Shown: positions 15,079 to 32,000, counted from the stretch's first letter. The stretch is 32,000 nucleotides of DNA from Kalymmatonema hyalinum WJT4-NPBG1 (GCA_019359075.1 JAHHIB010000008.1:100793-132792), one strand, 5' to 3'. Numbers and translations are program-made. Notes: generated by a model from the sequence alone, not told the origin.

Positions 15079-15519
15079 ATGGAACCTGCAACACTAACAG
15101 CAGCTATGATCGCCACTTTAGCATTTAGCAAAGCTATAGAAAAAACCGCAGAAACCCTGACAGCAACCGTATTAAACAAGTTAAATAATCTCCGCGAGAA
15201 AATTTGGCAGAGGTTCAAGGGTAATCAGAAATTAGAACAGACGCTAGCGAAAGCACAGAAAGAAGGCTCAAAAGAAGATGTTGATTTGATTTCTGCTTAC
15301 TTGCAGGTAGCGATGGATACAGACGATAAATTTGCTCAAGACATTCAACAGCTTGCCGAAGAAATTAACCAAGAAATTAATATTGGCAAGATTGAAGGGC
15401 GGAATGTCCAGAATGTTTATGGTGGTGAAGCTTATCAAAATAATGACAGTAAAGCTCCCATCTTCCAAGGCGTAGATAATAGCCCAATTACTATAAACTA
15501 CAATAATCCGCCTTCTTGA
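15079..15519 (+). CDS. 146-aa helical N-terminal effector-like domain (Bell/HeLo-like candidate) ending at an in-frame TGA; probably the detached N-terminus of the downstream NB-ARC-TPR gene
   Basis: Hydrophobic first helix MEPATLTAAMIATLAFSKAI, then charged helices, then an N/Q/G-rich tail NVQNVYGGEAYQNNDSKAPIFQGVDNSPITINYNN. It is in the same reading frame (frame 1) as ORF 15646-17784. Confidence 0.6.
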   Translation: MEPATLTAAMIATLAFSKAIEKTAETLTATVLNKLNNLREKIWQRFKGNQKLEQTLAKAQKEGSKEDVDLISAYLQVAMDTDDKFAQDIQQLAEEINQEINIGKIEGRNVQNVYGGEAYQNNDSKAPIFQGVDNSPITINYNNPPS

Positions 15520-15645
15520 CTGGAGTCGCTCGAACGGGAACGGGCAAAGTTAAATCCCCCTACTGGAATACCACAAAATATCCCCTCCCATCGGGCAGTA
15601 AAGTTCGTCGGGCGAGAGGAAGAACTACAACGCCTCCATCAACTC

Positions 15646-17784
15646 TTGCAGCAAAATGACCGTGTGGCAATAGCCGCTATTGCTGGTATGGGTGGAGTGG
15701 GGAAAACAGAACTAGCGCTGCAATATGCGATTGCACACCGCGAAAGTTACCAAGGTGGTGTTTGTTGGTTGCTGGCGTTACAAGATGTGGGGTTGCAGAT
15801 TGTGCAATTTGCTCGTATACAACTGCAATTAAATCCACCAGAGGATTTTGATTTACAGGCGCAAGTCGCATACTGCTGGCGAAACTGGCGTGAAGGTGAA
15901 GTGCTGTTAGTGTTAGATAACGTTACCGACTACAAACAAGTCAAGCCTTATCTCGAGACGTCATCGTCTCGGTTTAAAGTGTTGATGACAACGCGTCAAC
16001 GCTTAGGCGCATCAATCGCACAATTGTCCTTAGATGTGCTGCAACCAGAAGCGGCGCTGGAGTTATTACGAACACTCATCGGTGCAGAACGGGTTGATGA
16101 AGAAATTTCACAAGCAACGTCTCTGTGTGAGTGGTTGGGATATTTACCTTTGGGGTTAGAATTAGTCGGGCGGTATTTGGCACGGAAAGAGGATTTGTCC
16201 CTAGAAGAAATGTTGCAGAGGTTGGAGAAAAAGAAACTAGAACAACCTGCTCTTCTTAAGCCCAAGTCTGAGGACGACATGACAGCACAACTGGGTGTGC
16301 AAGCAGCGTTTGAGTTGAGTTGGCAGGAATTAAACAACACCGATAAGCAACTGGCGTGTTTACTGAGTTTATTTGCCCCTGCACCGATACCTTGGCAGTT
16401 GGTAGAACAGTGCTTACCCGATGTAGATGCAGAGGAAATAGAAGAAAGTCGGGATGATAAGCTGCTGAATTTGCATTTGCTACAGCGTAAGGAAAAGGGA
16501 ATTTATCAACTGCATCCACTGTTGCGGGAATTTTTTCAAATGAAGCTGGAAGAGTTAGAGAAAGCAGATGTAATGAAACGCGCTTTTGCCACAGCAGTGA
16601 TAGCAGTTGCCAAGTATATTCCTGAAACCCCTAACCGTGAGGAAATCAAAGCTGTGAGCACTGCTATGCCTCATATGGCAGAGGTAGCAAACAACCTCAC
16701 GACCTATCTCAATGATAAGGATATAATTTCACCTTTCTTGAGTTTGGGTCGATTCTACCAAGGTCAGGGGTTTTATGAACAGGCAGAACCTTGGTATAAG
16801 AAGTGTCTAGAAGTCACTAAAAAGCGCCTGGGGGAGGAACATCGCGATATCGCACCAACTTGGAATAATCTGGCTTATCTCTACAATTCACAAGGACGAT
16901 ACGCAGAAGCTGAACCCCTTTACTTGCAAGCTTTGGAACTGAGGCGATGCTTGCTGGGAGAAGAGCATCCCGATGTCGCTCTAAGTCTTAACAACCTGGC
17001 TTATCTCTACGATTCTCAAGGAAGATACGCAGAAGCTGAACCCCTCTACTTGCAAGCTTTGGAACTAAGACAACGCTTGCTGGGAGAAGAACATCCCGAT
17101 GTCGCCACTAGTCTCAATAACCTGGCAGGACTCTACAATTCACAAGGACGATACGCAGAAGCTGAACCCCTCTACCTCCAAGCATTAAAACTAATCCGAC
17201 GCTTGCTAGGAGAAGAACATCCCCATTTCGCCACTAGTCTCAACAACCTGGCGGCAATCTACAATTCCCAAGGACGATACGCAGAAGCTGAACCCCTCTA
17301 CCTGCAAGCTTTGGAACTGACGCGACGCCTGCTAGGAGAAGAACATCCTCATTTCGCCAGTAAGCTCAACAACCTGGCGGCAATCTACAATTCCCAAGGA
17401 CGATACGCAGAAGCTGAACTCCTATTCCAACAAGCTTTGCAACTAATGCGACGCCTGTTGGGAGAAGAACATCCTCATTTCGCCACTAACCTCAACAACC
17501 TGGCGGGAGTCTACTATGTACAAAGACGGTACAAAGAAGCTGAACCTCTGTTACAACAAGCTTTGCAACTAAGGCGACGCCTGCTAGGAGAAGAACATCC
17601 CGATGTTGCCAGTAACCTCAACAATTTAGCAGGATTATACCAATTCCAAGGACGTTATAGCGAAGCTGAGCCATTGTATAAACAAGCTTTGGAGATTTCT
17701 GAGCGCAGCTTAGGGATAGGTAATCCGTTAACAATAATGATTCGGAGAAATTATGCAAATTGCTTGAGGCGGGGATATCGTTGA
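15646..17784 (+). CDS. NB-ARC (STAND) NTPase with about 8 C-terminal TPR repeats; start uncertain (TTG 15646), likely 5'-truncated by the TGA at 15517
   Basis: Walker [18 protein letters not shown]; Walker B VLLVLDNV; then MTTR and a [10 protein letters not shown] (GxP) motif. The tail holds 42-aa TPR_12-type repeats ([38 protein letters not shown]). There is no in-frame ATG between the upstream stop and the P-loop. Confidence 0.85.
   Translation: [712 protein letters not shown]
16830..17700 (+). repeat. Intragenic 126-bp tandem repeats encoding the TPR units
   Basis: caaggacgatacgcagaagctgaac recurs at 16891, 17143, 17269 and 17395, with a close variant at 17017. The spacing is exactly 126 bp. 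Confidence 0.85.
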
Positions 17785-17890
17785 TGCTTCAATAACCAAA
17801 ATCATACTAGAGAAATGAACTTCTGAGCCTCAACGCCGAAGTTCTAAACTCGGACTTTGTACTTTTGAAGCTGAAGCCCCGAGTTCAGAA

Positions 17891-17973
17891 GCGCAAGTTT
17901 CAAGTTCCAACCACGAAGTTCCGAGTTCCAAACTTGAAGTTTCGAGTTCCAAGCACGAAGTTCCGAGTTCTGA
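17891..17973. repeat. About four tandem copies of a 21-bp unit built from AAGTTCC/GAGTTCC heptamers
   Basis: ccacgaagttccgagttccaa (17911) / acttgaagtttcgagttccaa (17932) / gcacgaagttccgagttctga (17953), plus a degenerate copy at 17891. The 60-aa ORF 17865-18047 is a by-product. Confidence 0.75.
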
Positions 17974-18150
17974 GGTTGAATGATGATGTTACACAGGCGA
18001 TCGCCCACCTAAAACTATCAAACCATCAAAAGCGATCGCTCTATTGATGCTATTGATGCTACGCGATCGCCTTCTCAATATCTGTGCATCTTAATTTCTT
18101 GGCGTTCTAGCCTTCGGCACGCCGCTTTGCGTCTAAGGCGTCTTGGCGGT

Positions 18151-18957
18151 TCAAATCTTCACCTTCTCCACAAACGGAGTAAAAATCGGAATCAATTCTT
18201 TTCGACTGACAACTAAAGTCGGGAAAGAACGAGTCGTATAATCTTCCCCTGGTATCAAAGGAAACGGTTCCGACTTTAACGATACCCAGCTTCCCCCAGC
18301 AGCTTGGACAATCACCCAAGCAGCCGCTATATCCCAAACTTTTGGTGTAGCTTCGACACCACCTAATGTTGCGCCAGCAGCAGTCGTCAGGAAATTATAG
18401 CTAGCAACTCCCAGCATCCGAATTTTGCAGGGAAAGTCTTTCTGTATCGCTGCGGTGCTACGGGAACAGAGGTTGAAGAAGTGGTTCCCACTTGGATCGT
18501 CATTACTGGTATAAATAGGACGTCGATCGCAAAAAGCTCCTGTTGGTGCTTCTAACTCAGGTATACCTCCCCAGTAGCCGTGAAAAGCTTGATTCAATGG
18601 CGGCACGTAGACATAGCCAAAAACTGGTGTGCCTTGATACAGCAAACCAAGGGAAATCGACCAAATGGGAATCCCACGAGTAAAGTTAGTTGTACCGTCC
18701 AAGGGGTCAATCACCCAGCACCATTCGGTACCAGGAAAAACCTTGTCGCCTTCTTCACTCAAGATACCGTAACCAGCGAAAGTAGATGCTATGGCGTCCC
18801 GTATTTCCTGATCCGCCCATTTATCTGCTTGCGTTACCAAAGTGCCATCAGCTTTTTGTAACGCTTGCACTTGCCCAAAATCTTGCATTAACTGGTTTCC
18901 CACTCTTGCGGTAGTGGTTTGGGCAAAATCGAGAATCGTTGTCCAAAATTCAGTCAT
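18151..18957 (-). CDS. Inositol monophosphatase family protein (IMPase/SuhB/CysQ-like)
   Basis: ILSEEG (metal-binding Glu) and WVIDPLDGTTNF (IMPase signature). Start set at MTEFWTT (ATG 18957). The 16 extra codons in the track ORF fall inside a heptamer repeat. Confidence 0.85.
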   Translation of the reverse strand: MTEFWTTILDFAQTTTARVGNQLMQDFGQVQALQKADGTLVTQADKWADQEIRDAIASTFAGYGILSEEGDKVFPGTEWCWVIDPLDGTTNFTRGIPIWSISLGLLYQGTPVFGYVYVPPLNQAFHGYWGGIPELEAPTGAFCDRRPIYTSNDDPSGNHFFNLCSRSTAAIQKDFPCKIRMLGVASYNFLTTAAGATLGGVEATPKVWDIAAAWVIVQAAGGSWVSLKSEPFPLIPGEDYTTRSFPTLVVSRKELIPIFTPFVEKVKI

Positions 18958-18959
18958 TT

Positions 18960-19002
18960 GAGGGATAGGGAATGAGGAATAGGGAATGAGGAATAGGGAA
19001 TG
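18960..19002. repeat. STRR-like tandem repeat, 14-mer AGGGAATGAGGAAT x about 3
   Basis: Copies at 18967-18980 and 18981-18994, with a partial copy at 18995-19002 and another before 18967. It lies directly 5' of the IMPase start on the minus strand. Confidence 0.8.
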
Positions 19003-19077
19003 CATAAAAAGACCAGTTCCCTAATTTCAATTCCCATTTCTCAATTATTATTGAGGATTTGAAGCAAACGAATATTT

Positions 19078-20511
19078 TTAATCTAATTCGCTTTGCAAAA
19101 TAGATGCAATCGCCTGCTTGGCATTTGTCTGAAACTCTCTCACATTCACGCGGTTAAGGAACCAAATCGCCAGCAGCATTAATGCGGCTTCTAAGGCAAA
19201 CACCAGTCCATAGGCTAGCACCAAGTTGGGCAGCACCTTACGTCCGACATCCAAGATCGCACCACCTGCAGCCACAGCCGTTCCTCTCGCTAGAGATTGC
19301 GCTAGTCCCCAAGCACCAATGAACGTTCCTGAGGTTTCAGGTGCTGTAAGATCCAGCATCAAGGTGATTGCGGCAGTCGTTAGAATACCAGTTGCTAAAC
19401 CGAACAATACCAAACCCAGCTTGAGTAACGCTGGATTAGCAGAAAATCCTGATATCCCAAGTAATCCTGCACAGAGTGCCACTAACATACAACCAAGGCG
19501 TATAGTTCTTTGCTTACCTAAACGCGGCACAATCAAAAAGCCCCCGACACCATACGCAATCAGTATACCTGTGCCGTAAAAAACATTCAGTTTAGTACTT
19601 TCTGCTAGAGGCATCCGAAAGACCTGACCCGCATAAGGTTCTAAAATAGGGTCTTGCATAAATAAGCCCAGCGACATCACCACTAAAAAGGTGAAAAATA
19701 TACCTGTTTGCGGGCTAGCTGTTAGTATTCGCCAAGCTGCGCCAAGGGTAATGCTGTCTTCTCGGTTGATGACTGTGGAACGAGTGGTGTACTGAGAATA
19801 CTTTTTTTCTACGCCAAACGTCGCTATAATCGCCAAGGCAAATACAATCGCTGGTACGATGAGAAACAGCCGATTGACTGATGCTTGTAATGTCGCTGTT
19901 GTTGCCTCGGGTGTTAATTGCTTGAGCAAACTGGAACTGATAATTGCCCCGACAATAATCCCCACCATCAGCATCGACCAAACAACACCGACAACTTTGG
20001 AACGGTTGTCTTCTTCAGAGATATCTACCAACAAAGCGGCAAAGGCAGTACTGCTTGCACAAATTGCCAAACCGTATAAAGCGAAAACCAAAGCTAGAAG
20101 AGCAATCCAGCTCATTGTTTGGGTTGTCCATGCCCAGCCACCAGCACTGCTGACGACAGTGTTCAGTTGCCACAACACTTGCACAGCTAAAAATGAGGCT
20201 ACAGCAAATACCGCAGCTCCCACCCAAACATAAGCCGTGCGGTGGTAGCCCCATATCGGCTTGGCATCGGACATTTGACCAAACCAAACGCGAGAAGGAG
20301 AAACAAATAACTGTATTGCTAGCACTGCCCCTACCAGCGTCGCCGGAATGGCTATTTCCTGAATCATGACTCTGTTGAGCACCCCCAGAGTCAGGATAGA
20401 CATCATAGCCAGCCCCATCTGAAATAAGCCAAGCCGAAACATGGTCAACACATTAACCTTTGGCATCGCCAGGGAACTTCCGTGGGAATCAATGAAATCT
20501 CCGCTTGCCAT
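19078..20511 (-). CDS. MFS transporter of the PucC/LhaA (BCD) family
   Basis: 477 aa, about 12 TM. The N-terminus FRLGLFQMGLAMMSILTLGVLNRVMIQEIAIPATLVG matches the characteristic PucC/BCD-family opening. The alternative start is Met16 (20466). Confidence 0.7.
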   Translation of the reverse strand: MASGDFIDSHGSSLAMPKVNVLTMFRLGLFQMGLAMMSILTLGVLNRVMIQEIAIPATLVGAVLAIQLFVSPSRVWFGQMSDAKPIWGYHRTAYVWVGAAVFAVASFLAVQVLWQLNTVVSSAGGWAWTTQTMSWIALLALVFALYGLAICASSTAFAALLVDISEEDNRSKVVGVVWSMLMVGIIVGAIISSSLLKQLTPEATTATLQASVNRLFLIVPAIVFALAIIATFGVEKKYSQYTTRSTVINREDSITLGAAWRILTASPQTGIFFTFLVVMSLGLFMQDPILEPYAGQVFRMPLAESTKLNVFYGTGILIAYGVGGFLIVPRLGKQRTIRLGCMLVALCAGLLGISGFSANPALLKLGLVLFGLATGILTTAAITLMLDLTAPETSGTFIGAWGLAQSLARGTAVAAGGAILDVGRKVLPNLVLAYGLVFALEAALMLLAIWFLNRVNVREFQTNAKQAIASILQSELD

Positions 20512-20756
20512 AACTACTTTCTCACATGGAATATATAATTTTATTTTTCATCGGTTTTATAACCAAGATAAACCTTGTGAGGGAAGATTCAGTTAACAGC
20601 GACTAAGCAGGTGAGCGCAGATAAACCGAACTACGTGACAAAAGATCATTTAGAATTCACAACGCATCATTTGTCTACACTCTGAGAGATATTTTGAGAA
20701 AAGTTTTACAATACACTGAAAAGTAAAGAATTGTAAAGAAATTTAATGTTGTAAAC

Positions 20757-21704: not shown

Positions 21705-21713
21705 AAAGAACTA

Positions 21714-21757: not shown

Positions 21758-21768
21758 TTTCACTTGAT

Positions 21769-22530
21769 TTACGAGTTCTCCTGACCTGCTAACATTTGTA
21801 AGATTTTTTCTACATTATCCAAATTCCCAGCAATTCTCCGTATAGGCTGAGGCCAAACTTTAACGAGGGTGGGAGTTGCAGAAACTTGATCGGATTCTGC
21901 TTGTTCTGGATTCGTTAATACGTCAATGACTTTCAGAGTATAAGGGTTGCCAAGATATTTTTCTAAAAGTTCGTGTAAATTTTTTAAAATGCGTTCAGTG
22001 GCAGCACTATGTCCTGCAACAAATAAGCGGAGAACATAGCCCTTTGTTTTTGATTGAGGTTGTTGTGCGGATGTGACTGGTTGATAGTACGAAGGAGTTG
22101 GATCACTAAGATCGAGCCGCATAACTAAGTCGTGATCTTCCCAAAGCTGGGGAAATCTGGAGCGATATGTTGTTAATACCAGGCGATCGCACAACCCCTC
22201 CTGCCAAGGTGCAGATTGCCATGCTAGCTCCCCTGTACCAAAAATAGCGTTAAGGACTGCTTGATGTCGCATGACTGCCGGATAAGCTTCGGCAAAAGTC
22301 TGGATTTGTTGGGTGCGCGGATTTAACCAATGGTCTATAGTCGCTGTGTAGCATGGTACTAAAAAGTGAGGCGGTTCTGGTAAGTCTAGGATTTCCTGCA
22401 ATATAGCGCACAAATGTAAATGCCATCGACCTTGCTTACTGGGGTCGATACAGTAAATTAAATCTCCTCCAGGTGTAAACAGCGCAATGCCTTTAAACAG
22501 TTGGGGTAGAGGTGGTTTGTCAGGTGTCAA
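21769..22530 (-). CDS. Long KaiB-family protein: about 155-aa N-terminal extension plus C-terminal KaiB (thioredoxin-like) domain
   Basis: C-terminus YVLRLFVAGHSAATERILKNLHELLEKYLGNPYTLKVIDVLTNPEQAESDQVSATPTLVKVWPQPIRRIAGNLDNVEKIL aligns with canonical KaiB (YVLKLYVAGNTPNS...[24 protein letters not shown]...P.P.R.IIGDLS). The only available start is TTG at 22530. Confidence 0.8.
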   Translation of the reverse strand: MTPDKPPLPQLFKGIALFTPGGDLIYCIDPSKQGRWHLHLCAILQEILDLPEPPHFLVPCYTATIDHWLNPRTQQIQTFAEAYPAVMRHQAVLNAIFGTGELAWQSAPWQEGLCDRLVLTTYRSRFPQLWEDHDLVMRLDLSDPTPSYYQPVTSAQQPQSKTKGYVLRLFVAGHSAATERILKNLHELLEKYLGNPYTLKVIDVLTNPEQAESDQVSATPTLVKVWPQPIRRIAGNLDNVEKILQMLAGQENS

Positions 22531-22548
22531 GGGCGTGTTAGGAGAAAA

Positions 22549-23054: not shown

Positions 23055-26000
23055 ATGATTCATTCAGTTGTCATCAATCTAGGATATGGTGATTTATACG
23101 AGGGATTTCCTGTTGTGACTGCTGGGTTGTGGGCATTAAATAATCCTCGTCCGCAGCAGTTTATCGGTAGTTTACCACCAGCGCCGAATTTGGTAGAGTT
23201 GTATCGAAATTGGCAATCGATGTATCAGAGTTTGTGCGATCGCCTTTGGCGGGGCGCAGCGCATCGCCTAGGAAGTGGATCGATTAGGAATTTGGCGAAT
23301 GATGATGATGAACTAGAAATTGATGAAGGTAATATCACGAATGTCTCTGTAGTAGATTTTAATGATTTGTGCCACCAGTTACAGCTAAGTATTGATAATT
23401 GGCTGGGATCACCAGGGATTACTGGTATTAGCCGACAGCTACGCGCTGCACTTCATCCCGCAGATGAAATACGGGTAATTATCGAAACTCAAGATATTAT
23501 TATCCAAAAATTACCTTGGCATTGTTGCAGTTTTTTTCAAGATTATCCGCGTTCAGAACTTTCTTTTTCGAGAACTGAATATAAACGCACTCCTAAGTTG
23601 CAATTGTCGCAAGTTCCCAGAAATCACGCAAGAATTTTGGCAATTTTAGGCAATTCTCAAGGTATTGATTTAGAAAGAGAACAGAGGTTTTTACAAAGTT
23701 TACCCGATGCAGAGATACAGCTAGTTGTCAAGCCTTCACGGAAAGAATTTAACGATAAACTTTGGGATTCTCAAGGTTGGGATATGCTCTTTTTTGCTGG
23801 GCATAGTCAAACTGAGGAGGAAACAGGAATAATTTATATTAATGAAAATCCGACCAATAATAGTTTGACGATTGAACAATTAACAGAAGCGTTAAAAGCG
23901 GCGATTGAGAAGGGTTTGCAACTAGCAATTTTTAATTCTTGCAATGGTTTAGGGTTGGCTCATGGCTTGGAAAAATTAAACCTGCCGACGACAATTGTTA
24001 TGCGCGAACCAGTGCCAAATCGCGTTGCAGAAGAATTTTTTAATTATTTTTTACAAGCGTTTGCGTTTGAACAAAAATCGTTGTATACGTCAGTACAGCA
24101 AGCGCGACGCAGACTACAAGGATTAGAAGATGATTTTCCCGGTGCGAGTTGGCTACCTGTAATTTTTATTAATCCCGCTGAAGAACCACCAAGTTGGGTG
24201 AATCTCAAGGAAAAATTTGCATCTCAAGCTATATTGAATCACACTCAAGTAGAAAGTAAAAAAAAGCGCCAGGATTGGGGAGAGGCGATTGATGTTTCGA
24301 TATTTTACGGACGTAATGACGAAATTAACATATTAAAAAGATGGATTGTGACGGATAATTGCCGATTAATTACAATAATTGGCATGGGTGGAATTGGAAA
24401 AACAGCTTTATCTGTCAAGTTAGCAGAACTGGTGGAAAATGAATTCGATTGTTTAATTTGGCGAAGCTTACGGAATGCGCCACCAGTAGAAGAATTATTG
24501 AGCGATTTAATCAGTTTTTTATCTCAAAAACATCAAATAGTTGTAGCAAATTCCTTAGATAAACAAATATCTCAATTAATCGAATGTCTGCGTGCTTCTC
24601 GCTGTTTAGTCGTGTTGGATAATCTCGAATCGATTTTACACAGCGATAAACAAGCCGAAAATTACCTTGAAGGATATGCAGGATACGGACAACTTTTGCA
24701 ATGTGTGGGAGATACTCGCCATCAAAGTTGTGTTTTAGTCACCAGTCGAGAAAAACCTAGAGGACTTGGCGCGAGGGAAGGCGATAATTTTCCAGTGCGA
24801 TCGCTGGCATTAAAAGGGTTAAATTCTCAAGAAGGAGAATTAATTTTAGTACAAAAAGGTTTATCGCCATCAGCAAGTCAAATAAACAGCTTAGTTGAGT
24901 CTTATGCTGGTAATCCGCTGGCGCTAAAGATTGCAGCAACGACAATTGAAGAATTATTTGCTGGTAGTATTACTGATTTTTTACAAGCAGGTACAATTAT
25001 CTTCGGCGATATTTTCGATTTACTCAGCCAGCAGTTTCACCGTATTTCGATTTTAGAAAAAGAAGTTATGTATTGGTTGGCGATTAATCGAGAGTGGCTA
25101 TCTTTAAAAGAGTTACAAGGCGATATTATTGATGTTGTCAAAACGCGAGATTTACTGACAGCTTTAGAGTCTTTACAATCGCGTTGCTTACTTGAAAATA
25201 AAGCAGGTAAGTTTACTCAGCAACCAGTAGTGATGGAATATGTCATTGAAGAATTAATCGAACAAGTTACCGAAGAGATTTCTACGGGAGAAATTCAAAT
25301 CCTGAATAAATATGCTTTAATTAAAGCCCAAAGCCAAGATTACCTCAGAAATGCTCAAATTGAATTTATTCTCAAACCAATTGCTGATAAACTATCAAAA
25401 TTTTGGGTACAAAACGAAACTATTCAAAAGCATTTAAATCAAATTTTATCGCAACTAAAATCCTCTACAATACCAAAAACGGGATATGCTGCAGGTAATA
25501 TAATTAATCTCTTGCGACAACTTGATATAGAACTAAATAACTATGACTTTTCTAATCTAAATATTTGGCAAGCTTACCTGCAAGGAATCAACTTACAACA
25601 AACAAACTTTGCTAATTCCGATTTAAGTAAATCAGTATTTACCCAAAGTTTAGGTAGTATTTTAGCAGCCAAATTCAGCCCCACAGGTAAATTATTAGCA
25701 ACAGCGATTGAGAATCAAATATATCTATGGGAAGTTGACAACATCAGACAATTACTTCAACTTGACGGTCATACAGCTTGGGTGCGATCGCTTGCATTAA
25801 GCCAGGATGGTAAAATCCTAGCGAGCGGTAGTCGCGATCGCACTATCAGGTTATGGAACGTCGAAAGCGGACAATGCTTGCAAATACTAACAGGTCATAC
25901 ATCAGATGTACAATCCGTTGCTTTTAGCCACGACGGTAACACTTTAGCTAGTGGTAGCAACGATAAAACTATCAGATTATGGAATATCTCAACCGGACAA

Positions 26001-27509
26001 TGTTTGCAGGTTTTCCGAGGACATACAAATAATCTCACCTTTGTCACTTTCCATCCCCACAAGGAAATATTAATTACTGCAAGTGTCGATAAAACCGTTA
26101 GATTGTGGGATATCCCAACTGGGGAATGTTTACAAATCTTCAATATTCCGATTAATTGGGAACTTGCTGTTGCTTTAAGTCACGACGGACAAACATTAGT
26201 TACCGGAAGCGATGGTAATACGGTAAAATTCTGGGATATATCCAGTGGTAAATGCATCAAAACTCTACCAGATTACAACAGCTTTGTCTGGACTGTAACT
26301 TTTAGTCACGACGATAAAACCATAGTTACTGGCAGCGAAGATAACACAATCAAAATTTGGGATATAGAGACTGGAGAATGTCTGCAAACCTTACATGAAC
26401 ATAACCAGCGAGTTTGGTTAGTTGATTTGCATCCAGACAATCAAACTTTACTGAGTATCAGCGAAGACCAAACTATCAAACTCTGGGATGTGCGATCGCA
26501 ACGCTGCTTAAAAACATTAAAAGGGTATAGCAACTGGATATTATCTCTCGCTTTTAGTCCAGATGGTCAAACATTAGCCAGCAGTTCCCAAGACCAGAAA
26601 ATTAGACTATGGGATATTAAAACAGGAAAATGCCACTCAATATTACAAGGACACGATAACTTAATATCTTCAGTCACCTTTGCTCCTCAACATATTAAAG
26701 ATTGTCTACTAGCTAGCGGTAGTGATGACAACACCATCAAACTGTGGAATCATCAAGGCGAATGCTTGAAAACACTCCGGGGACACGAGGCTTGGGTATA
26801 TTCAGTTGCTTTTAGTCCCCAGGGGAAAATTTTAGCTAGTGGTAGTCGTGACAATACTGTAAAACTTTGGGATTGGCGGACGGGTGAATGTTTGCACACT
26901 TTAGTCGGACATCAAAATAGAGTCAAATCAGTTGCCTTTAATCCTTTCAGTAACATATTAGCAAGCGGTAGTGATGACACAACCATCAAAATATGGGATG
27001 TCAATAATCGAACTTGCTTGCAGACACTGGTAGGACATCAAGATAGGCTTGATTGCGTAGTTTTCAGCCCCAATGCAAACATAATTGCAAGTGCTAGTTG
27101 CGACAAAACCATCAAACTATGGGATGTGAATACCGGGGAGTGTCTCCACACATTACAAGCACATACCCACCGTATCCGCATGGTAGCATTTAGTTCAGAT
27201 GGTCAGATTCTAGCTAGTTGTAGCGACGACCAAACAGTAAAACTATGGGATGCCAGTACAGGTAAACATATTAGAACATTGTCAGGACATGATAAAGCAG
27301 TATGGACGGTTGCAATTAGCCTCGATAATTGCATATTAGCCAGCGGTAGCGAAGACCAAACCATCAAACTTTGGCATCTGCAAACAGGTGAATGCTGGCA
27401 AACCTTAAGATGCAGTAGACCATATGAAGGTATGAATATTAACAATACTACTGGTTTAACAACTGCTCAGAAAACTATCTTAAAATCCTTGGGGGCAGTC
27501 GAAGAATAG
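23055..27509 (+). CDS. CHAT protease - NB-ARC/NACHT-type STAND NTPase - pentapeptide-like linker - 14 x WD40 protein (1484 aa)
   Basis: The CHAT region has a His/Cys dyad: MLFFAGHSQ (His codon 23802-23804) and LAIFNSCNGLG (Cys codon 23940-23942). Walker A IIGMGGIGKTALSVKLA (24381-24404); Walker B CLVVLDNLES; then VLVTSRE. Linker: NYDFSNLNIWQAYLQGINLQQTNFANSDLSKSVF. There are 14 repeats ending in xxLW(D/N/E/H)x with GH...SPDG/SHDG cores. Confidence 0.9.
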   Translation: MIHSVVINLGYGDLYEGFPVVTAGLWALNNPRPQQFIGSLPPAPNLVELYRNWQSMYQSLCDRLWRGAAHRLGSGSIRNLANDDDELEIDEGNITNVSVVDFNDLCHQLQLSIDNWLGSPGITGISRQLRAALHPADEIRVIIETQDIIIQKLPWHCCSFFQDYPRSELSFSRTEYKRTPKLQLSQVPRNHARILAILGNSQGIDLEREQRFLQSLPDAEIQLVVKPSRKEFNDKLWDSQGWDMLFFAGHSQTEEETGIIYINENPTNNSLTIEQLTEALKAAIEKGLQLAIFNSCNGLGLAHGLEKLNLPTTIVMREPVPNRVAEEFFNYFLQAFAFEQKSLYTSVQQARRRLQGLEDDFPGASWLPVIFINPAEEPPSWVNLKEKFASQAILNHTQVESKKKRQDWGEAIDVSIFYGRNDEINILKRWIVTDNCRLITIIGMGGIGKTALSVKLAELVENEFDCLIWRSLRNAPPVEELLSDLISFLSQKHQIVVANSLDKQISQLIECLRASRCLVVLDNLESILHSDKQAENYLEGYAGYGQLLQCVGDTRHQSCVLVTSREKPRGLGAREGDNFPVRSLALKGLNSQEGELILVQKGLSPSASQINSLVESYAGNPLALKIAATTIEELFAGSITDFLQAGTIIFGDIFDLLSQQFHRISILEKEVMYWLAINREWLSLKELQGDIIDVVKTRDLLTALESLQSRCLLENKAGKFTQQPVVMEYVIEELIEQVTEEISTGEIQILNKYALIKAQSQDYLRNAQIEFILKPIADKLSKFWVQNETIQKHLNQILSQLKSSTIPKTGYAAGNIINLLRQLDIELNNYDFSNLNIWQAYLQGINLQQTNFANSDLSKSVFTQSLGSILAAKFSPTGKLLATAIENQIYLWEVDNIRQLLQLDGHTAWVRSLALSQDGKILASGSRDRTIRLWNVESGQCLQILTGHTSDVQSVAFSHDGNTLASGSNDKTIRLWNISTGQCLQVFRGHTNNLTFVTFHPHKEILITASVDKTVRLWDIPTGECLQIFNIPINWELAVALSHDGQTLVTGSDGNTVKFWDISSGKCIKTLPDYNSFVWTVTFSHDDKTIVTGSEDNTIKIWDIETGECLQTLHEHNQRVWLVDLHPDNQTLLSISEDQTIKLWDVRSQRCLKTLKGYSNWILSLAFSPDGQTLASSSQDQKIRLWDIKTGKCHSILQGHDNLISSVTFAPQHIKDCLLASGSDDNTIKLWNHQGECLKTLRGHEAWVYSVAFSPQGKILASGSRDNTVKLWDWRTGECLHTLVGHQNRVKSVAFNPFSNILASGSDDTTIKIWDVNNRTCLQTLVGHQDRLDCVVFSPNANIIASASCDKTIKLWDVNTGECLHTLQAHTHRIRMVAFSSDGQILASCSDDQTVKLWDASTGKHIRTLSGHDKAVWTVAISLDNCILASGSEDQTIKLWHLQTGECWQTLRCSRPYEGMNINNTTGLTTAQKTILKSLGAVEE

Positions 27510-27531
27510 AGCTTTAAATCACTGAACAGTA

Positions 27532-27670
27532 CCAGCCGCAGTGACGCCTGCGGGCTGGTGGGGGATTTAAACCCGCCCTCCGGGTTCGCCACTTGCTCTA
27601 CTTGGGGAAACCCCAAGACCGCAGTGGCTCACCACCAACGCTTTCGGTCCAATTGGTGTGGTGTTTCCCC
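27532..27670. repeat. GC-rich multi-hairpin segment resembling cyanobacterial dispersed repeats, just 3' of the CHAT-WD40 gene
   Basis: CCAGCCGCAG/CTGCGGGCTGG (27532-27558); TTGGGGaaaCCCCAA (27602-27616); CACCAA...TTGGTG (27633-27658). GC is far above the surrounding spacer. Confidence 0.45.
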
Positions 27671-27681
27671 CAACGATAAAA

Positions 27682-27723
27682 CTGATAACTGGTAACTGGT
27701 AACTGATAACTGGTAACTGTTAA
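27682..27723. repeat. STRR-like heptamer tandem repeat (CTGRTAA x 6)
   Basis: ctgataa ctggtaa ctggtaa ctgataa ctggtaa ctgttaa, contiguous from 27682. Confidence 0.85.
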
Positions 27724-27878
27724 AAGACTTTCAGCTTATAAGCATCCGTACAACCCTCAAGCAACTTTTGTTGCCATTACTATTACCATCACGGCTAATA
27801 TCATATCCGGCTTCCCCATCTCCAAAGCAAAATTAACTCTTAGGAGGGATATGAATGTTGTTAAAAACCATCCAAAAT

Positions 27879-27909
27879 TTGACTTGGTGTACTGAAAAAT
27901 ATATATAAT
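27879..27909 (+). promoter_or_regulatory. Sigma70-like promoter candidate (TTGACT ... TATAAT)
   Basis: TTGACT at 27879-27884. TATATA follows after a 17-nt spacer; perfect TATAAT (27904-27909) follows after a 19-nt spacer. It faces the small ORF at 27924 and the 3' end of the minus-strand WD40 gene. Confidence 0.25.
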
Positions 27910-27923
27910 ATTTTCCTTCTAGT

Positions 27924-28091
27924 ATGAATACAGAAAATCAAAAACCAAAAAAATCTGACGCAGAAGACCAAACATCTGATGATTCTCGTTCTCCTGGAGT
28001 TACAGACAGAAGCCCGAATACATCAGAAAATACATCTAAGAATAATGAGGCGAAGGAGCCTGAACAGGAAAGTACAACAAAGAAAAATTAG
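27924..28091 (+). CDS. Hypothetical 55-aa hydrophilic low-complexity peptide (below the ORF-track cutoff)
   Basis: ATG 27924 ... TAG 28089-28091. MNTENQKPKKSDAEDQTSDDSRSPGVTDRSPNTSENTSKNNEAKEPEQESTTKKN. No Shine-Dalgarno sequence. It sits only ~14 nt after the -10 candidate. Coding status is doubtful. Confidence 0.2.
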   Translation: MNTENQKPKKSDAEDQTSDDSRSPGVTDRSPNTSENTSKNNEAKEPEQESTTKKN

Positions 28092-28136
28092 GCTTAGTCT
28101 GATGGCTATAGAGTTCCCTGTTCCCCCTTTTTGTAA

Positions 28137-31100
28137 CTACTTGTTTACATTGTCACAGAGATGGCGATCGCTTTCCTCAACATCAGGGCTATGATTCAGA
28201 TAGTCACGCATCCAATTGCAAGCCCGTTCCATCAGTTCGTCAGATGATTGAATTGACCACGATTTAAAGCTACCATCGCTCCCCACAGTCGTCAGTAATT
28301 TACCATCTGAACTTAAACTAATGCTGTTAACAGCAGATTGTTTAGTCTGCCATGCTGCTAATGGTAATTGTTCTTTAGGGTCTTGCAAATTCCACAATAG
28401 TATGCGACCTGTGTGATCGCTGCTGATAATCCTTTGAGTGTCTGGGCTAAAAGTTACTGAGGTTATTCGGGGTCCATATATTTGAAATATTCTTTCCCCT
28501 TTACCTTGTAAATTCCATAAACGAATAGTACCGTCATCACCACCACTCACTATTTGCTTGCCATCTGAACTAAACGCTACACTGTTGACATCGCCCAAAT
28601 GATCTTCAAATGGTTTGCTCAAGGGTTGACCTTGCAAGTTCCACAAACGAATAGTACCGTCCTTACCACCACTCACTATTTTTTTACCATCTGGGCTAAA
28701 CGCCACACTCTTAACATCGCCCAAATGACCTTTAAATGGTTCCCCCAAGGATTGACCTTGCAAGTCCCACAAACGAATAGTACCGTCCTTACCACCACTC
28801 ACTATTTTTTTACCATCTGGGCTAAACGCCACACTCTTAACATCGCCCAAATGACCTTTAAATGGTTCGCCCAAAGGTTGACCTTGCAAGTCCCAAAAAC
28901 GAATAGTACCATCCTTACCACCACTAACTATTTTCTTACCATCCCTACTCAAACTAATCGCACTAACGCTGCTTGCATATTTTTTATTTTCAAACTTCTT
29001 TAATTCCCGACCTTGTAAATCCCAGATGCGAACCATCGTATCATCGCTGCTACTCGCCAATTGCTGACCATCTGGGCTAAAACTCACACTTCTAACTGGT
29101 CCTTTATGACCGACAAATTTCTCCAATTCCTGTTTAGGATCGACAAATTTCTCCAATTCCTGACCTTGCAAATTCCAAACCTTAACAGTACCGTTTCCTC
29201 CTGCGGTAGCCAATTGCTGACTATCCAAGCTGAATACTATATCCCAGAGTTTGTCTTGTTGTGCATTCCATTCTTCGACTAACTTACCCTGCAAGTTCCA
29301 CACTCGCACAAAGCCGTCTTCTCCAGTACTAGCAAGTAGTTGACCATCTGGGCTAAAACTAAGACCGCTTACAGGACCTTTATGACCTGCAATTTTTTTT
29401 AACTCCTGACCTTGAAAGTTCCACAACCGTATAGTGCTATCATCTGACGCGCTTGCTATTAGCTGACCATTCGGACTGAAACTAAGATTTTTGACTGGCT
29501 TTTGATGCCCTTTTAATTCTACTGATAACTCACCCTGCAAGTTCCATAAACTTACAGTACCGTTATTTGCTTCGCTAGCGACTAAGTTACCATCTGGACT
29601 AAACCCAATCCCCCACAATTTACCTTGTTGTGCATTCCATTCTTTGACTAACTCACCCTGTAAGTTCCACAAACGAACAAATCCGTCATCTCCAGCAGTT
29701 GCAACTAGCTGACCACTAGGGCTATATTTGATACTTCTTACCGAACCTTTGTGTTTTTCAAATCTCTGCAATTCCTTACCCTGCAAATTCCACAAGCGGG
29801 CTGTACCATCATCTCCACTGGTAGCCAATTGCTTACCATCTGGGCTAAACATCACACTTCTAACGGGGCGATCATAACCCTCTAGGCGGTTGCGTTCTCT
29901 AACAGTATAAACTGCTCGTTGCAGCGTTCCTTCTATTTGCTCCTGTAGCAGAGGAGGATTGAGTGGGAAGAATTTTAAAAGTCGTTTTTTAAGAGTATTT
30001 CCAGCTTGCAAAATTTTAATCATCCCATCCAAAGATTGATTATCATCCAAGCTTATTTCTGCCGATTCTCTCAATCTACTGGCTTCTCTTATCTGTGATC
30101 TTCCTAGAAAAAACAAAAGTCCAAGAGCCAACCCGCTTAAACCCAGGATTACGCCAATAGCAATCCGCCACCGCCAACTTACGTTTCGACGTTTTTGCAA
30201 AACACTACGCCCGACAAACTCAGCTTCTAACTTGTTAAACCAATTTTGCTGGGAGTTGAGTTGCTCATTTAAGACATCAAGATAAGGATTACCATTCCAA
30301 AGAAATTCTGCTGGTTTTTCTTTTGAAGACTTCTGCTGATTAGATTGCGATCGCCTCCACAGTCGAATCAACTCGGTATCGGTTTTGCTAAGTAAGTTTT
30401 CAACGGCGTAGAGTTGGCGATCCAACCAATCGATCGCAGGTTCAACCTTGGCTGGAAAACCGGATGGTTGTTCCTTGCTTTTAACACTTTGCCACTCCAC
30501 CGCAGCTGGTGTCAGTCGCCGTTGTAAAATTAAACTTTCTTCCTCATCTTGTTTCCACAGCAGCAGCTTTTGCCAACCCCGTACCAAAGCATCATGGGCT
30601 GGTTCCACATAAGGTTTACCTTCAGCGTCTTGTCCTTCTACCAGTAGACGCGCATCTGTAAAACGCCGAATCACCTCTTTGATGCGGGTATTTTCCGGTT
30701 CGGGATACTCTAGTTCGGATAAAGGTACCCGTCTACGCGCCAAATCTGGACTACCCACCGCCACCATCCGCAGCATCACCTTACGGATAGTACTAACATA
30801 TGCCGTATTTTTTTTAACTAAATTATCATATTCCCAGTCTGCTCTTTGGGTGAGACTGCGCGTTACTCCTCCCAATTGTTCGTAATCTGCTTGAGTAATT
30901 ACTCGGTCGCTTCTTGTACCTTCCCTGACACTCTTTAAGTACTTCAAATACAATTCGCTTAAGGTAAAAGAAAGTAACGGTAACGCCCCTGGCATCTGGG
31001 CTACTTCATCAATTAACTGTTCTACCAAACTGTGCGGCTCAAAATACATTACCCGCGCTGAGGCTGGTTCCTCAATGCAAGCGCGTAATTCCTCCCGCGT

Positions 31101-32000
31101 CATTGCTGGAACAATAAACCGAGATGAATACCAATATGGTTCTAAGGCTGAGTTGGACAATTGAGATTCAAAGTCACTACGTAGTGTCAGTACAATTCGT
31201 AATTTTTCTGAATAATTAGCTACTAAATTAGCCAAGAGTTTGAGAAAGCCTTCCCGCTCTTGCTCGTTGCGACACAAGGTAAGCAATTCTTCTGCCTGGT
31301 CAATGACTAGCATTAATTTTGACTGAGGATTTTGCTGCAACCAAGTCGAAATATGATCCTCAGTATTAACTAATAATTTATCTACCGCTAATGTATTATT
31401 TAAAGCTTTTAACGGCGACTCCCCAGGACGCATAGGTGTAAGGATATGCCATTGTACATTTAACTGTTTGATGTAAGGTATCAATCCCGCTTTCACCAAA
31501 CTGGATTTTCCGGTTCCCGAAGCAGCCAACACTACTGTTAACGGTTGTTTGCAAACTTGTTGATACAATTGTTCTGTTAAAGCTTGTCTGCCGAAAAATA
31601 GTTGACTGTGTTCCTCATCAAAAGCTTGCAAACCACGATAGGGATTTTGTGACTCATCTAAAGGTGGCGCGGGTGGTAAATTTAGTTCGTGTTCGGGGGA
31701 AAGAAAGATATACTCGCCTTTATCGTGCTTGTTTAAACACCAAATACCAGGTGTTTGACGCAAACGGTATTTTTCGGTAGGAATTTCCACTCTATCCCGT
31801 AAATATAAATATAGTTCGGTAGCAGTAATCACCCCATCCCCAGCAGATTTACCAGGTTGAGGGGGAGGATAGATATCTGCTGCACCTTCGAGGGCTTCTA
31901 ATAATGCAGCAGCAAAAGGTGAATAATTACCGACTTGACCGCGTTGGGTATCCAGGGTAAGCGCAAGAAAAAATGAGCCAAAAGATGCTAGACCCGACAT
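28137..32000 (-). CDS. Caspase-like (peptidase C14) C-terminal part - P-loop STAND NTPase - single TM helix - about 13 x WD40; 5' end probably beyond the window
   Basis: N-terminal ...FLALTLDTQRGQVGNYSPFAAALLEALEGAAD...GDGVITATELYLYLRDRV...RQTPGIW matches the p10-like end of bacterial C14 caspase domains. NPYRGLQAFDEEHSQLFFGRQ plus Walker A LAASGTGKSSLVKAGLIP (about 31503-31526) and Walker B LMLVIDQAEEL form the NTPase. TM helix: WRWRIAIGVILGLSGLALGLLFFLG (about 30109-30178). WD40 repeats carry the recurring 'WNLQG' motif. Confidence 0.85.
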   Translation of the reverse strand: MSGLASFGSFFLALTLDTQRGQVGNYSPFAAALLEALEGAADIYPPPQPGKSAGDGVITATELYLYLRDRVEIPTEKYRLRQTPGIWCLNKHDKGEYIFLSPEHELNLPPAPPLDESQNPYRGLQAFDEEHSQLFFGRQALTEQLYQQVCKQPLTVVLAASGTGKSSLVKAGLIPYIKQLNVQWHILTPMRPGESPLKALNNTLAVDKLLVNTEDHISTWLQQNPQSKLMLVIDQAEELLTLCRNEQEREGFLKLLANLVANYSEKLRIVLTLRSDFESQLSNSALEPYWYSSRFIVPAMTREELRACIEEPASARVMYFEPHSLVEQLIDEVAQMPGALPLLSFTLSELYLKYLKSVREGTRSDRVITQADYEQLGGVTRSLTQRADWEYDNLVKKNTAYVSTIRKVMLRMVAVGSPDLARRRVPLSELEYPEPENTRIKEVIRRFTDARLLVEGQDAEGKPYVEPAHDALVRGWQKLLLWKQDEEESLILQRRLTPAAVEWQSVKSKEQPSGFPAKVEPAIDWLDRQLYAVENLLSKTDTELIRLWRRSQSNQQKSSKEKPAEFLWNGNPYLDVLNEQLNSQQNWFNKLEAEFVGRSVLQKRRNVSWRWRIAIGVILGLSGLALGLLFFLGRSQIREASRLRESAEISLDDNQSLDGMIKILQAGNTLKKRLLKFFPLNPPLLQEQIEGTLQRAVYTVRERNRLEGYDRPVRSVMFSPDGKQLATSGDDGTARLWNLQGKELQRFEKHKGSVRSIKYSPSGQLVATAGDDGFVRLWNLQGELVKEWNAQQGKLWGIGFSPDGNLVASEANNGTVSLWNLQGELSVELKGHQKPVKNLSFSPNGQLIASASDDSTIRLWNFQGQELKKIAGHKGPVSGLSFSPDGQLLASTGEDGFVRVWNLQGKLVEEWNAQQDKLWDIVFSLDSQQLATAGGNGTVKVWNLQGQELEKFVDPKQELEKFVGHKGPVRSVSFSPDGQQLASSSDDTMVRIWDLQGRELKKFENKKYASSVSAISLSRDGKKIVSGGKDGTIRFWDLQGQPLGEPFKGHLGDVKSVAFSPDGKKIVSGGKDGTIRLWDLQGQSLGEPFKGHLGDVKSVAFSPDGKKIVSGGKDGTIRLWNLQGQPLSKPFEDHLGDVNSVAFSSDGKQIVSGGDDGTIRLWNLQGKGERIFQIYGPRITSVTFSPDTQRIISSDHTGRILLWNLQDPKEQLPLAAWQTKQSAVNSISLSSDGKLLTTVGSDGSFKSWSIQSSDELMERACNWMRDYLNHSPDVEESDRHLCDNVNK
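28515..29018 (-). repeat. Intragenic 126-bp tandem repeats (WD40 units); two adjacent copies are nearly identical
   Basis: Units starting at 28641 and 28767 differ at only about 3-4 of 126 positions by my manual comparison. Flanking units (28515, 28893) are more diverged. They encode KIVSGGKDGTIRLWDLQGQ(S/P)LGEPFKGHLGDVKSVAFSPDGK. Confidence 0.85.

Follow-up and report, generated by a model that had tools for sequence, protein, structure and literature searches.

Bell domains are defined as all-alpha, five-helix bundles of about 100 residues, in proteins of about 120-140 amino acids whose first helix is hydrophobic and whose residue 2 or 3 is acidic, and they occur mostly in short proteins adjoining NLR genes of multicellular bacteria (Dyrka 2020, bioRxiv 10.1101/2020.01.06.895854). 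One Bell/BASS system of E. coli, Bab/Agp, has been shown experimentally to act in antiphage abortive infection (bioRxiv 10.1101/2024.11.07.622273). The present analysis concerns a 32,000-nucleotide stretch, referred to below as the window, of Kalymmatonema hyalinum (S. hyalinum) WJT4-NPBG1, a metagenome-assembled genome (GCA_019359075.1, JAHHIB010000008.1:100793-132792). Three STAND NTPase genes, numbered (i) to (iii), were reported in its part from 15079 to 32000, and domain searches find all three. The main subject is gene (i), in which a Bell-like effector open reading frame (ORF) is separated from an NB-ARC-TPR sensor in the same frame by an in-frame UGA, followed at a fixed distance by a conserved RNA stem. 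We lean towards reading gene (i) as a two-product Bell/NLR system, in which programmed read-through of the UGA would provide an abundant free effector and a rare effector-NLR fusion.

Gene (i) resembles the described Bell/BASS-NLR pairs, Bab/Agp included, in encoding a protein of about 140 amino acids that has a hydrophobic N-terminal helix, an acidic second residue, a helical bundle of about 100 residues and a short N/Q/G-rich C-terminal motif. It also shares with the Bell/BASS-NLR pairs a collinear NB-ARC-TPR gene immediately downstream and a distribution confined to multicellular cyanobacteria. Unlike theirs, however, the NLR of gene (i) has neither a start codon nor a motif of its own, and lies in frame with the effector across the UGA and the hairpin. 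A preliminary description of this DNA had presented gene (i) as one helical-NB-ARC-TPR gene and had missed the in-frame stop, which is the region's most unusual feature. It is not a single ORF, since the TGA at 15517-15519 divides the 146-residue helical ORF from the NB-ARC-TPR frame that continues it:

15079..15519 (+), Bell-like effector ORF of 146 amino acids, starting at ATG 15079 and ending at the TGA
15517..15519 (+), conserved in-frame UGA with C at +4, the proposed read-through site, from comparison of loci
15520..17784 (+), NB-ARC-TPR continuation ORF of 754 codons in the frame of the Bell ORF (Pfam NB-ARC, TPR_12/TPR_10)
from 15604 (+), opening of the NTPase, FVGREEEL, read from the sequence
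15685-15708 (+), Walker A motif GMGGVGKT, read from the sequence
about 16681-17703 (+), eight TPR units (Pfam)

The effector ORF is identical (100 %) to the annotated protein MBW4499021.1. It begins M-E-P-ATLTAAMIATLAF, with M1 and E2 nearly invariant in its family, and consists of a helical bundle (residues 8-111) and an N/Q/G-rich tail (residues 112-146, NVQNVYGGEAYQ...ITINYNNPPS). In an AlphaFold2 model built with 87 homologues, the helices of residues 8-111 reach a pLDDT of about 90, the tail coming out as disordered. Searching proteins with the N-terminal part as query recovers a stand-alone family of 139-155 amino acids, in about 80 clusters across Nostocales, and a profile search with the family of the 146-residue protein returns 572 representatives. 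The ORF matches no entry of Pfam, NCBIfam or PADLOC, and Foldseek gives no match in the PDB at E<=0.001. In its length, hydrophobic first helix, glutamate at position 2 and modelled helical bundle, the protein appears to carry the feature set of a Bell domain. Bell-like domains are elsewhere fused to TIR, CHAT or other modules.

Past the stop, translation continues as LESLERERAKLNPPTGIPQNIPSHRAVKFVGREEELQRLHQLLQQNDRVAIAAIAGMGGVGKT, followed by the NB-ARC domain and the eight TPR units, and no further stop occurs for 754 codons. The NB-ARC domain scores 51.1 bits against Pfam, and both Walker A (GMGGVGKT) and Walker B (LLVLDNV) are present; on these features, and on those given below for gene (ii), both genes can be assigned to the NB-ARC class of STAND proteins. 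The TPR region contains 126-nt units in 5.9 copies at 86 % identity (Tandem Repeats Finder). The NB-ARC clade of gene (i), with the same ...GIPQNLP..FVGR linker, is elsewhere joined to EAD10, EAD4 or helical domains.

The comparison drew on four members in unrelated neighbourhoods (Iphinoe, Tolypothrix campylonemoides, Scytonema HK-05 and Rivularia PCC 7116) and on 41 loci from a metagenome scan. These yielded 27 distinct sites and a later locus (L116) one more, giving 28 in different genera and neighbourhoods. At 27 of the 28 the stop is TGA-C, and at one (L099) it is TAA-C, while within these genomes only 2 of 182 ordinary long ORFs close with TGA-C. The upstream ORF has 133-178 codons at every site. 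The stop is followed by CT[ACG][ACG]A[GC][TCA]C[GA] and a hairpin of 5-6 bp, and then usually by AAAGT…CCC; the downstream frame is that of the upstream ORF at all sites, remaining open for 137-1054 codons, with the P-loop normally 50-59 codons past the stop. No sense-codon variant of the stop was seen among the compared sites, and therefore the stop itself appears to be selected. A single genome, showing an in-frame stop in an otherwise continuous ORF, might suggest a decaying pseudogene with a nonsense mutation or an assembly error; however, the same stop stands in 28 distinct sequences from independent assemblies, with both halves open and under coding constraint. These comparative data rule out a pseudogene or sequencing error at the TGA, and we give this explanation next to no credence.

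One candidate for a natural fusion with tryptophan in place of the stop (P0250) was rejected, as its DNA has the TGA and another copy of the element and the fusion is a gene-caller artefact. At this locus (L116:488-1648) the public gene call reads TGA as Trp, in the manner of translation table 4, and reports a 386-residue Bell-NB-ARC "fusion". Other annotations start the NLR at the ATA of the IP motif (Rivularia PCC 7116) or at the GTG of FVGR (Scytonema HK-05).

The sequence directly downstream of the stop forms the second conserved component of gene (i), with the following parts in the window:

15520..15560 (+), conserved RNA element as a whole (covariation, RNAalifold, frozen third positions)
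15520-15527 (+), spacer CUGGAGUC, 8 nt
15528-15532 and 15541-15545 (+), stem arms GCUCG and CGGGC (covariation)
15533-15540 (+), loop AACGGGAA, from the sequence
15536-15539 and 15555-15558 (+), possible pseudoknot GGGA with UCCC (covariation in the aligned register)

The stem is 90.8 % paired across 24 sequences, compared with 20-51 % in slid controls, and RNAalifold predicts the same stem. Compensatory double changes are present at two of its pairs (CG/UA/UG at one and CG/GC/UA/UG at the other), and the arms vary together as GCUCG/CGGGC, GUCCG/CGGAC, GCCUG/CGGGC, GUCGG/CCGAC, GCCUG/CAGGU, GCCCGA/UCGGGU and GUCAGA/UCUGAC. The spacer is 8 nt long in 20 of 21 sequences. A covariance model of the element matches the window at this site only, and finds nothing elsewhere in 1.12 Mb of other Nostocales DNA. 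Pairing between the loop GGGA and the downstream UCCC as a pseudoknot is suggestive, with variants at the same offset in the aligned register (GGAG/CUCC, AGGA/UCCU and CGGCA/UGCUG). We regard the sequence features themselves, as distinct from the mechanism, as very secure.

A UGA closely followed by a hairpin is also the layout of the bacterial selenocysteine insertion sequence (SECIS), and the near-invariance of the UGA would suit a codon for selenocysteine or another non-standard residue, with the hairpin acting in a SECIS-like manner. We nevertheless consider this very improbable: one site has TAA (L099), bacterial SECIS stems are far longer than that of gene (i), and the inserted residue would fall in a disordered linker with no redox site. 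The free 146-residue form is, moreover, clearly selected, its family being annotated as stand-alone throughout. Rfam gave no match in the whole window at gathering thresholds, and a local search at E<=10 returned nothing relevant and no SECIS.

Beyond the element, the linker up to the P-loop shows the substitution pattern of coding sequence. L080 and L081 differ at 2, 2 and 16 sites of codon positions 1, 2 and 3, respectively, and L108 and L110 at 1, 1 and 7. Within the 45 nt directly past the stop, third positions are nearly frozen and the few changes fall at positions 1 and 2. The first canonical start past the TGA in the window is TTG 15646, beyond the FVGREEEL helix. The same holds for at least 13 of 26 loci, where the first ATG, GTG or TTG comes only past the conserved FVGR helix of the NTPase, and in L085 and L086 it is the Met within Walker A, GMGGIGKT. 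A leaky stop context, a coding-type extension that lacks a start, and a covarying 3' stem at a fixed distance are the features by which read-through is recognised, and on this comparative sequence evidence they point to it in gene (i).

The homologues of gene (i) at 41-45 % identity (the P0205/P0220 group) provide a reference for how the sensor obtains its motif, as they sit in canonical Bell/BASS pairs (L103:2920-4359, L104:152-2585, L098:279-2536 and L102:160-1095). In the first three, the small protein ends in …MTQINYGGTNYQTKTGANNTNFFGG and the adjoining NLR has its own ATG or GTG and its own copy, MTQTNYGGTNYQIQTGRDNTNIF; in all four, the NLR is provided with a start codon and with a tail motif of its own (MTQTNYGGTNYQ...NTNIF), the signature of BASS. 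On both partners the motif takes the form MTQ[IT]NYGGTNYQ…NTN[FI]F, or GWQTKVEGGTAYIG / GFQTLVEGGIALVG. The window tail NVQNVYGGEAYQNNDSKAPIFQG aligns with this motif. Taken as a separate ORF, the window NLR contains no copy of NVQNVYGGEAYQ...ITINY and no start before FVGR. Thus, as two ORFs, gene (i) does not share a motif between its partners, and only read-through would give the sensor the effector's motif, because the NLR of the window subfamily has neither start nor motif. The other hallmark of BASS loci, a collinear and close gene of the NB-ARC or NACHT type with TPR or WD repeats, is present, and it is NB-ARC-TPR in most loci.

These observations also bear on the possibility that gene (i) makes two separate proteins, Bell being released at the UGA and NB-ARC-TPR then being started, by the same or new ribosomes, at a non-canonical codon of the linker. 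The start could be the CUN right past the stop, or the AUA, AUU or AUC of the "IP" motif, and the hairpin would hold or pause the ribosome and so couple the two ORFs. Bell/NLR pairs elsewhere are indeed separate and tightly coupled ORFs, 42 % of which overlap (Dyrka 2020, bioRxiv 10.1101/2020.01.06.895854); an Ile codon stands near codon 17 in many linkers, and one gene model of Rivularia PCC 7116 starts at that ATA. Yet no candidate start is kept throughout: the codon right past the stop varies among CTG, CTA and CTC, an Ile codon is lacking before FVGR in L094 and L087, and no conserved Shine-Dalgarno-like sequence is visible among the compared loci. The Ile-Pro is instead a conserved peptide motif in single-ORF fusion proteins, and an NLR made in this way would be deprived of the motif that canonical partners have. 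We judge separate initiation, the chief alternative to read-through, unlikely.

From the anatomy described above, we infer the following course of events under programmed read-through. Most ribosomes would terminate at the UGA (15517-15519), freeing an effector composed of the helical bundle and its N/Q/G-rich, BASS-like tail. A minority would read through, favoured by the weak UGA-C context and by the hairpin, possibly as a pseudoknot; placed 8 nt downstream, the hairpin would stand at the entrance of the mRNA channel in a ribosome whose A site contains the stop codon. The likeliest decoder would be a near-cognate Trp-tRNA; a suppressor tRNA was sought, and no tRNA gene occurs within the window. 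The rare product would be a Bell-BASS-linker-NB-ARC-TPR fusion. Once its TPR sensor was triggered, the fusion would oligomerise via NB-ARC and cluster its tails, which could template or recruit the abundant free effector and lead to membrane damage and cell death by abortive infection. The signalling step is proposed by analogy with Bell/BASS-NLR pairs, with E. coli Bab/Agp and with fungal HET-S/NWD2. The efficiency of read-through, the amyloid templating and the killing of the cell all belong to this proposed part of the scheme.

Recoding signals of this kind are best described in eukaryotic systems: the gag-pol junction of murine leukaemia virus combines UAG, an 8-nt spacer and a pseudoknot, alphaviruses and coltiviruses use UGA-C with a 3' stem-loop, and mammalian genes carry UGA-CUAG (PMC4132726). 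Gene (i) resembles them in its leaky UGA with C at +4, often within CUA or CUG, in the 8-nt spacer followed by a conserved, covarying base-paired element, and, as proposed here, in a short major product accompanied at a set ratio by a C-terminally extended minor one. It differs from them in its bacterial host, where termination depends on RF2, in a much shorter stem, and in residing in chromosomal cellular genes, with read-through as a prediction only. Bacteria and their phages are known to produce two proteins with a common N-terminus at a fixed ratio by recoding, as in A1 of phage Qβ, through UGA read-through, and in tau/gamma of E. coli dnaX, through frameshifting and a hairpin. Qβ, however, has no dedicated 3' structure, dnaX relies on frameshifting that gives the shorter product, and neither involves immune-type STAND proteins. 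In fungal HET-S/NWD2 and in single-polypeptide HeLo/Bell-NLR proteins, a pore-forming helical domain is likewise controlled by an NLR, either through two genes that share an amyloid motif or through one fusion, whereas in the cyanobacterial locus a single mRNA would yield both. A term search of Dyrka 2020 (bioRxiv 10.1101/2020.01.06.895854) found no mention of a stop codon, of read-through or of an in-frame arrangement, and the literature searched holds no prior description of read-through or recoding in cyanobacterial or bacterial NLR or Bell genes.

Several points weigh against read-through in gene (i). The 28 sites are related by descent, so that their counts are not independent events. The stem is short, with 5-6 bp and about -7 to -9 kcal/mol, a clear hairpin is missing in L110/L108 and L088, and the pseudoknot is not significant in a register-free shuffle test. 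L099 (position 3394) has TAA, which is hard to read through, and translation of the downstream protein of L076 could begin independently at the ATG of codon 71. The assignment of the effector to the Bell class is made on features rather than on a profile match, no solved Bell-domain structure having matched, and the extended product is predicted from sequence alone. Beyond a few phage and selenoprotein cases, we know of no read-through stimulated by a 3' structure in bacterial chromosomal genes.

Two individual loci deserve mention beside these points. L099 belongs to a divergent subfamily (L099, L100 and L107, with the stem GUCAGA/UCUGAC), and its frame past the TAA is open for 611 codons. 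The NB-ARC orthologue of T. campylonemoides (L070:6442-6600) has a 3-residue deletion that removes the first Walker A Gly (AAMGGVGKT); it is called as 466 amino acids only, and this copy may be decaying.

The Bell-UGA-hairpin cassette also precedes a NACHT-HEAT-NCC-H protein (L076:3439-6438), which replaces NB-ARC-TPR, and the cassette thus appears portable among sensors. At this locus the loop and the downstream stretch change together (GGAG/CUCC). We tentatively extend the programmed read-through reading, with slightly less than even confidence, to a general one: a portable cassette of Bell, UGA-CUN, 8-nt spacer and hairpin or pseudoknot would be placed, in multicellular cyanobacteria, before NB-ARC or NACHT sensors, read-through would fix the ratio of the two products, and the fusion would seed the free pool.

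The other two STAND genes belong to a class that is well represented in cyanobacteria. Architectures of the metacaspase/CHAT-STAND type were reportedly set out by Koonin and Aravind in 2002 and have been known since 2002-2012. Metacaspase-NACHT-(pentapeptide)-WD40 proteins of cyanobacteria have been described (Asplund-Samuelsson 2012, PMC3501461), as has the nSTAND1 domain (Kaur et al. 2021, PMC8195603). Genes (ii) and (iii) share the architectures of this class, including the pentapeptide insert before WD40 and the transmembrane helix after the protease and NTPase, and differ from it in nothing essential, although gene (ii) is unusually well conserved for its class. The domain calls of the preliminary description, which placed the three genes among the bacterial NLR- and apoptosome-like STAND proteins of multicellular cyanobacteria, are essentially right, the NTPase of gene (iii) being more precisely nSTAND1. 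For gene (ii), every domain then proposed, CHAT, NB-ARC, pentapeptide and WD40, is recovered, the pentapeptide stretch scoring above its cut-off:

23055..27509 (+), gene (ii), 1484 amino acids, intact (Pfam domains, orthologues)
23472-24128 (+), CHAT domain, residues 140-358 (PF12770, E 4e-13, 49.9 bits against a cut-off of 24)
23802-23804 and 23940-23942 (+), catalytic residues His250 and Cys296, respectively, invariant in 16 orthologues
24318-24938 (+), NB-ARC domain, residues 422-628 (41.9 bits, Walker A GMGGIGKT)
about 25545-25646 (+), pentapeptide stretch, residues ~831-864 (PF00805, 24.6 bits against a cut-off of 20.2)
about 25647-27443 (+), WD40 propellers with about 13 repeats (domain search)

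Gene (ii) is identical to MBW4499028.1, annotated as "CHAT domain-containing protein". With PF12770 above threshold and a conserved His/Cys dyad, whose motifs FFAGHS (His) and FNSC (Cys) are invariant in 16 of 16 orthologues, its product fits a CHAT protease. When species-representative genomes were scanned, full-length relatives with identities of 71-94 % turned up in about 25 from Nostocales, among them Scytonema, Tolypothrix, Cyanomargarita, Rivularia, Calothrix, Richelia and Rhizonema. Sixteen proteins were aligned, 13 of them full length (1457-1515 amino acids), and the WD40 region proved to be conserved to the same degree as the remainder (96-97 % for the closest genomes, 74-84 % for distant ones). 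Tandem Repeats Finder detected no near-identical internal repeats in gene (ii). It is a slowly evolving one-to-one orthologue, present in at least 15 Nostocales genomes and spread over Scytonema, Tolypothrix, Cyanomargarita, Rivularia, Calothrix and Rhizonema. Conserved orthologues with slowly evolving repeats had been named beforehand as counting against a dedicated immune role, and this is what gene (ii) presents. CHAT proteases can be developmental, because HetF, a CHAT protease, cleaves PatU3 in heterocyst development (PMC9457339). By this analogy gene (ii), like HetF, may have a cellular rather than an immune role, and we read it as a conserved CHAT-NB-ARC-WD40 protease switch that is inherited vertically and probably acts on a conserved target within the cell.

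Gene (iii) had been proposed as a caspase-like-NTPase-TM-WD40 gene, TM denoting a transmembrane helix. Its nSTAND1, transmembrane helix and WD40 repeats are all found, and the caspase is present only as a C-terminal tail, since the gene runs off the window. As also reported earlier, genes (ii) and (iii) converge across a spacer of 627 bp:

27510..28136, convergent spacer between (ii) and (iii), 627 bp, with no credible gene
28137..32000 (-), gene (iii), truncated at its 5' end by the end of the window (Pfam, homologue alignment)
31656-32000 (-), caspase C-terminal tail, about 105-115 residues (alignment to Peptidase_C14 homologues)
30474-31643 (-), nSTAND1, residues 120-509 (PF20703, E 1e-103, 348 bits)
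30096-30170 (-), transmembrane helix, residues 611-635, strongly hydrophobic, between NTPase and WD40
about 28251-29903 (-), WD40 repeats, 12 or more (domain search)

The caspase tail alone has no Pfam match. The catalytic motifs of its homologues, FYFAGHG and LDCCFAG, lie beyond the window edge, about 190 residues towards the N-terminus, and nearly all close homologues listed carry both PF00656 and PF20703. In total, 951 proteins resemble gene (iii) at E<=1e-20; the best homologue is 67 % identical, and the exact protein is absent from the searched collection. Of 13 homologues checked, 9 have a transmembrane helix at the corresponding position. Its placement would anchor the protein, or put the WD40 sensor across the membrane from the caspase and NTPase. 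The first ~14 residues at the window edge (MSGLASFGSFFLAL) stand where homologues have a conserved SAASDQKA.D segment, a mismatch that may reflect divergence, a lost S1 pocket or the edge of the assembly.

The WD40 region of gene (iii) contains 126-nt units in 3.5 copies at 91 % DNA identity (Tandem Repeats Finder). Gene (ii) is followed by a caspase-nSTAND1 gene in convergent orientation in L003 (17341-19689), L007 (18731-21016), L018 (17080-19311), L019 (17406-19841) and probably L006, and such convergence is counted in 5-6 of about 17 genomes from several genera; the gene is missing there in L002 (Scytonema PCC 10023) and about 10 others. The caspase tail of gene (iii) shares 85-90 % identity with its syntenic counterparts in other genera (L003, L007, L019). 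Its nSTAND1 is only 56-64 % identical to the syntenic genes, which among themselves reach 68-78 %, and is closer to unlinked genes (68-69 %). This suggests that gene (iii) carries a swapped NTPase/sensor module, because the tail matches the syntenic genes and the nSTAND1 matches unlinked genes better. From its patchy presence, mosaic nSTAND1 and near-identical WD40 repeats, gene (iii) therefore looks like a variable, recombining and mosaic gene, as expected for a conflict sensor. The occurrence of the convergent protease-STAND pair in several genera hints at an ancestral linkage, and this recurrent tail-to-tail pairing is the only hint of a functional link between the genes.

A substrate gene beside the two proteases was sought. 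The spacer has no credible ORF, holding only low-complexity ORFs of 28-71 amino acids with no promoter-like site and one weak terminator-like site, and the neighbours in related loci are not conserved, in agreement with the earlier remark that no obvious substrate gene adjoins the proteases.

The three STAND genes, together with the toxin-antitoxin modules of the neighbourhood, had been grouped as a conflict- or defence-enriched region, which would make them a single island of cooperating or jointly acquired members. The genes and modules that separate or precede them are as follows:

10369..11074 (-), putative DUF433/DUF5615 toxin-antitoxin-like pair (DUF433 29.8 bits, above cut-off; DUF5615 20 bits, below cut-off)
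14016..14601 (+), putative toxin-antitoxin pair upstream of gene (i), an 80-residue ORF and a PIN-like ORF of 124 residues
18151..22530, housekeeping block from (i) to (ii) (Pfam, NCBIfam)

The housekeeping block comprises inositol monophosphatase, PucC/MFS, an aldo-keto reductase and a KaiB-family protein of 253 residues (identical to MBW4499027.1), and is syntenic in L002 and L003 at 95-98 % identity. The three STAND genes are thus not contiguous, four housekeeping genes lying between (i) and (ii). All three genes and extra toxin-antitoxin modules are syntenic in T. campylonemoides, which would suit an island, as would the convergence of caspase-nSTAND1 on gene (ii) in several genera and the mosaic appearance and near-identical repeats of gene (iii). 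The other findings go against it: gene (ii) is conserved as an orthologue and its repeats evolve slowly, modules of the gene (i) type occur in unrelated contexts, the close relative PCC 10023 lacks gene (iii), and GC content is unremarkable over 11-32 kb. Beyond the closest genomes, gene (ii) is found without (i) and often without (iii). PADLOC and NCBIfam searches of the region gave only weak partial matches and no complete system, and none of the three genes was recognised as a known defence system. An Avs4 match (E 6e-5) reached 18-22 bits against a cut-off of 1500 and covered the P-loop region only, and the Avs1-5 and bNACHT models gave nothing for (i) or (ii) apart from repeat matches. 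A single conflict island is unsupported because the three genes behave differently across genomes, and we consider it distinctly unlikely; the earlier interpretation is borne out only in part.

The two toxin-antitoxin modules named in the preliminary description are plausible but weak, the PIN-like ORF scoring below its Pfam cut-off (E 1.5e-4, 22.8 bits against 23.6) and DUF5615 likewise falling short. The orthologous position in L070 carries an 80-residue ORF and a 147-residue PIN protein. At L070:9397-11972, T. campylonemoides has at least four extra modules (PIN, RHH/PIN, HicAB and UPF0150) between the gene (i) orthologue and inositol monophosphatase, where the window has only about 370 bp, and this may be a local hotspot of toxin-antitoxin insertion.

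The remainder of the window opens with a low-GC glycosyltransferase/GDP-mannose dehydratase cluster at 1-10.3 kb, after which come the DUF433/DUF5615 pair, CbiQ, GTPase Der, the PIN-like pair and gene (i). In the lowest-GC stretch of the cluster (0.29-0.35), an ORF of 767 amino acids (2648-4951, +) has no Pfam or NCBIfam match. The 253-residue protein (21769-22530, -), encoded directly upstream of gene (ii) on the opposite strand, has its KaiB domain confined to residues 168-247, leaving an N-terminal part of 160 residues to which no domain is assigned, and is at least 90 % identical across Scytonema, Brasilonema and Tolypothrix. Intergenic tandem repeats with 21/42-nt units are found at 17879-17970 and 27680-27723, just downstream of genes (i) and (ii).

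Taken together, this region holds a well-supported and apparently undescribed element of the recoding type, which on the evidence of its sequence would join a death effector to an NLR. Conserved, structure-assisted read-through of stop codons is textbook knowledge in eukaryotic viruses; for cellular genes of bacteria there is, to our knowledge, next to no record of it. The three "death" STAND genes are one core-like and conserved gene, one mosaic and variable gene, and one recoded effector-sensor module, rather than one island. The current annotation of the gene (i) loci looks wrong, with arbitrary internal NLR starts or with TGA read as Trp, and surveys of Bell/BASS systems that demand a motif on the NLR side will miss this class. 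The 28 or more covarying examples would provide a ready-made test system for translation biology. If the proposal is true, gene (i) would be, within the literature searched, the first reported case of 3'-structure-stimulated read-through in bacterial chromosomal genes, and a single-mRNA version of NLR amyloid signalling. A bacterial NLR would then be physically coupled to its pore-forming executioner while most of the executioner stays free, with amplification and a built-in stoichiometry, bridging the two-gene (HET-S/NWD2, Bab/Agp) and single-polypeptide NLR designs.

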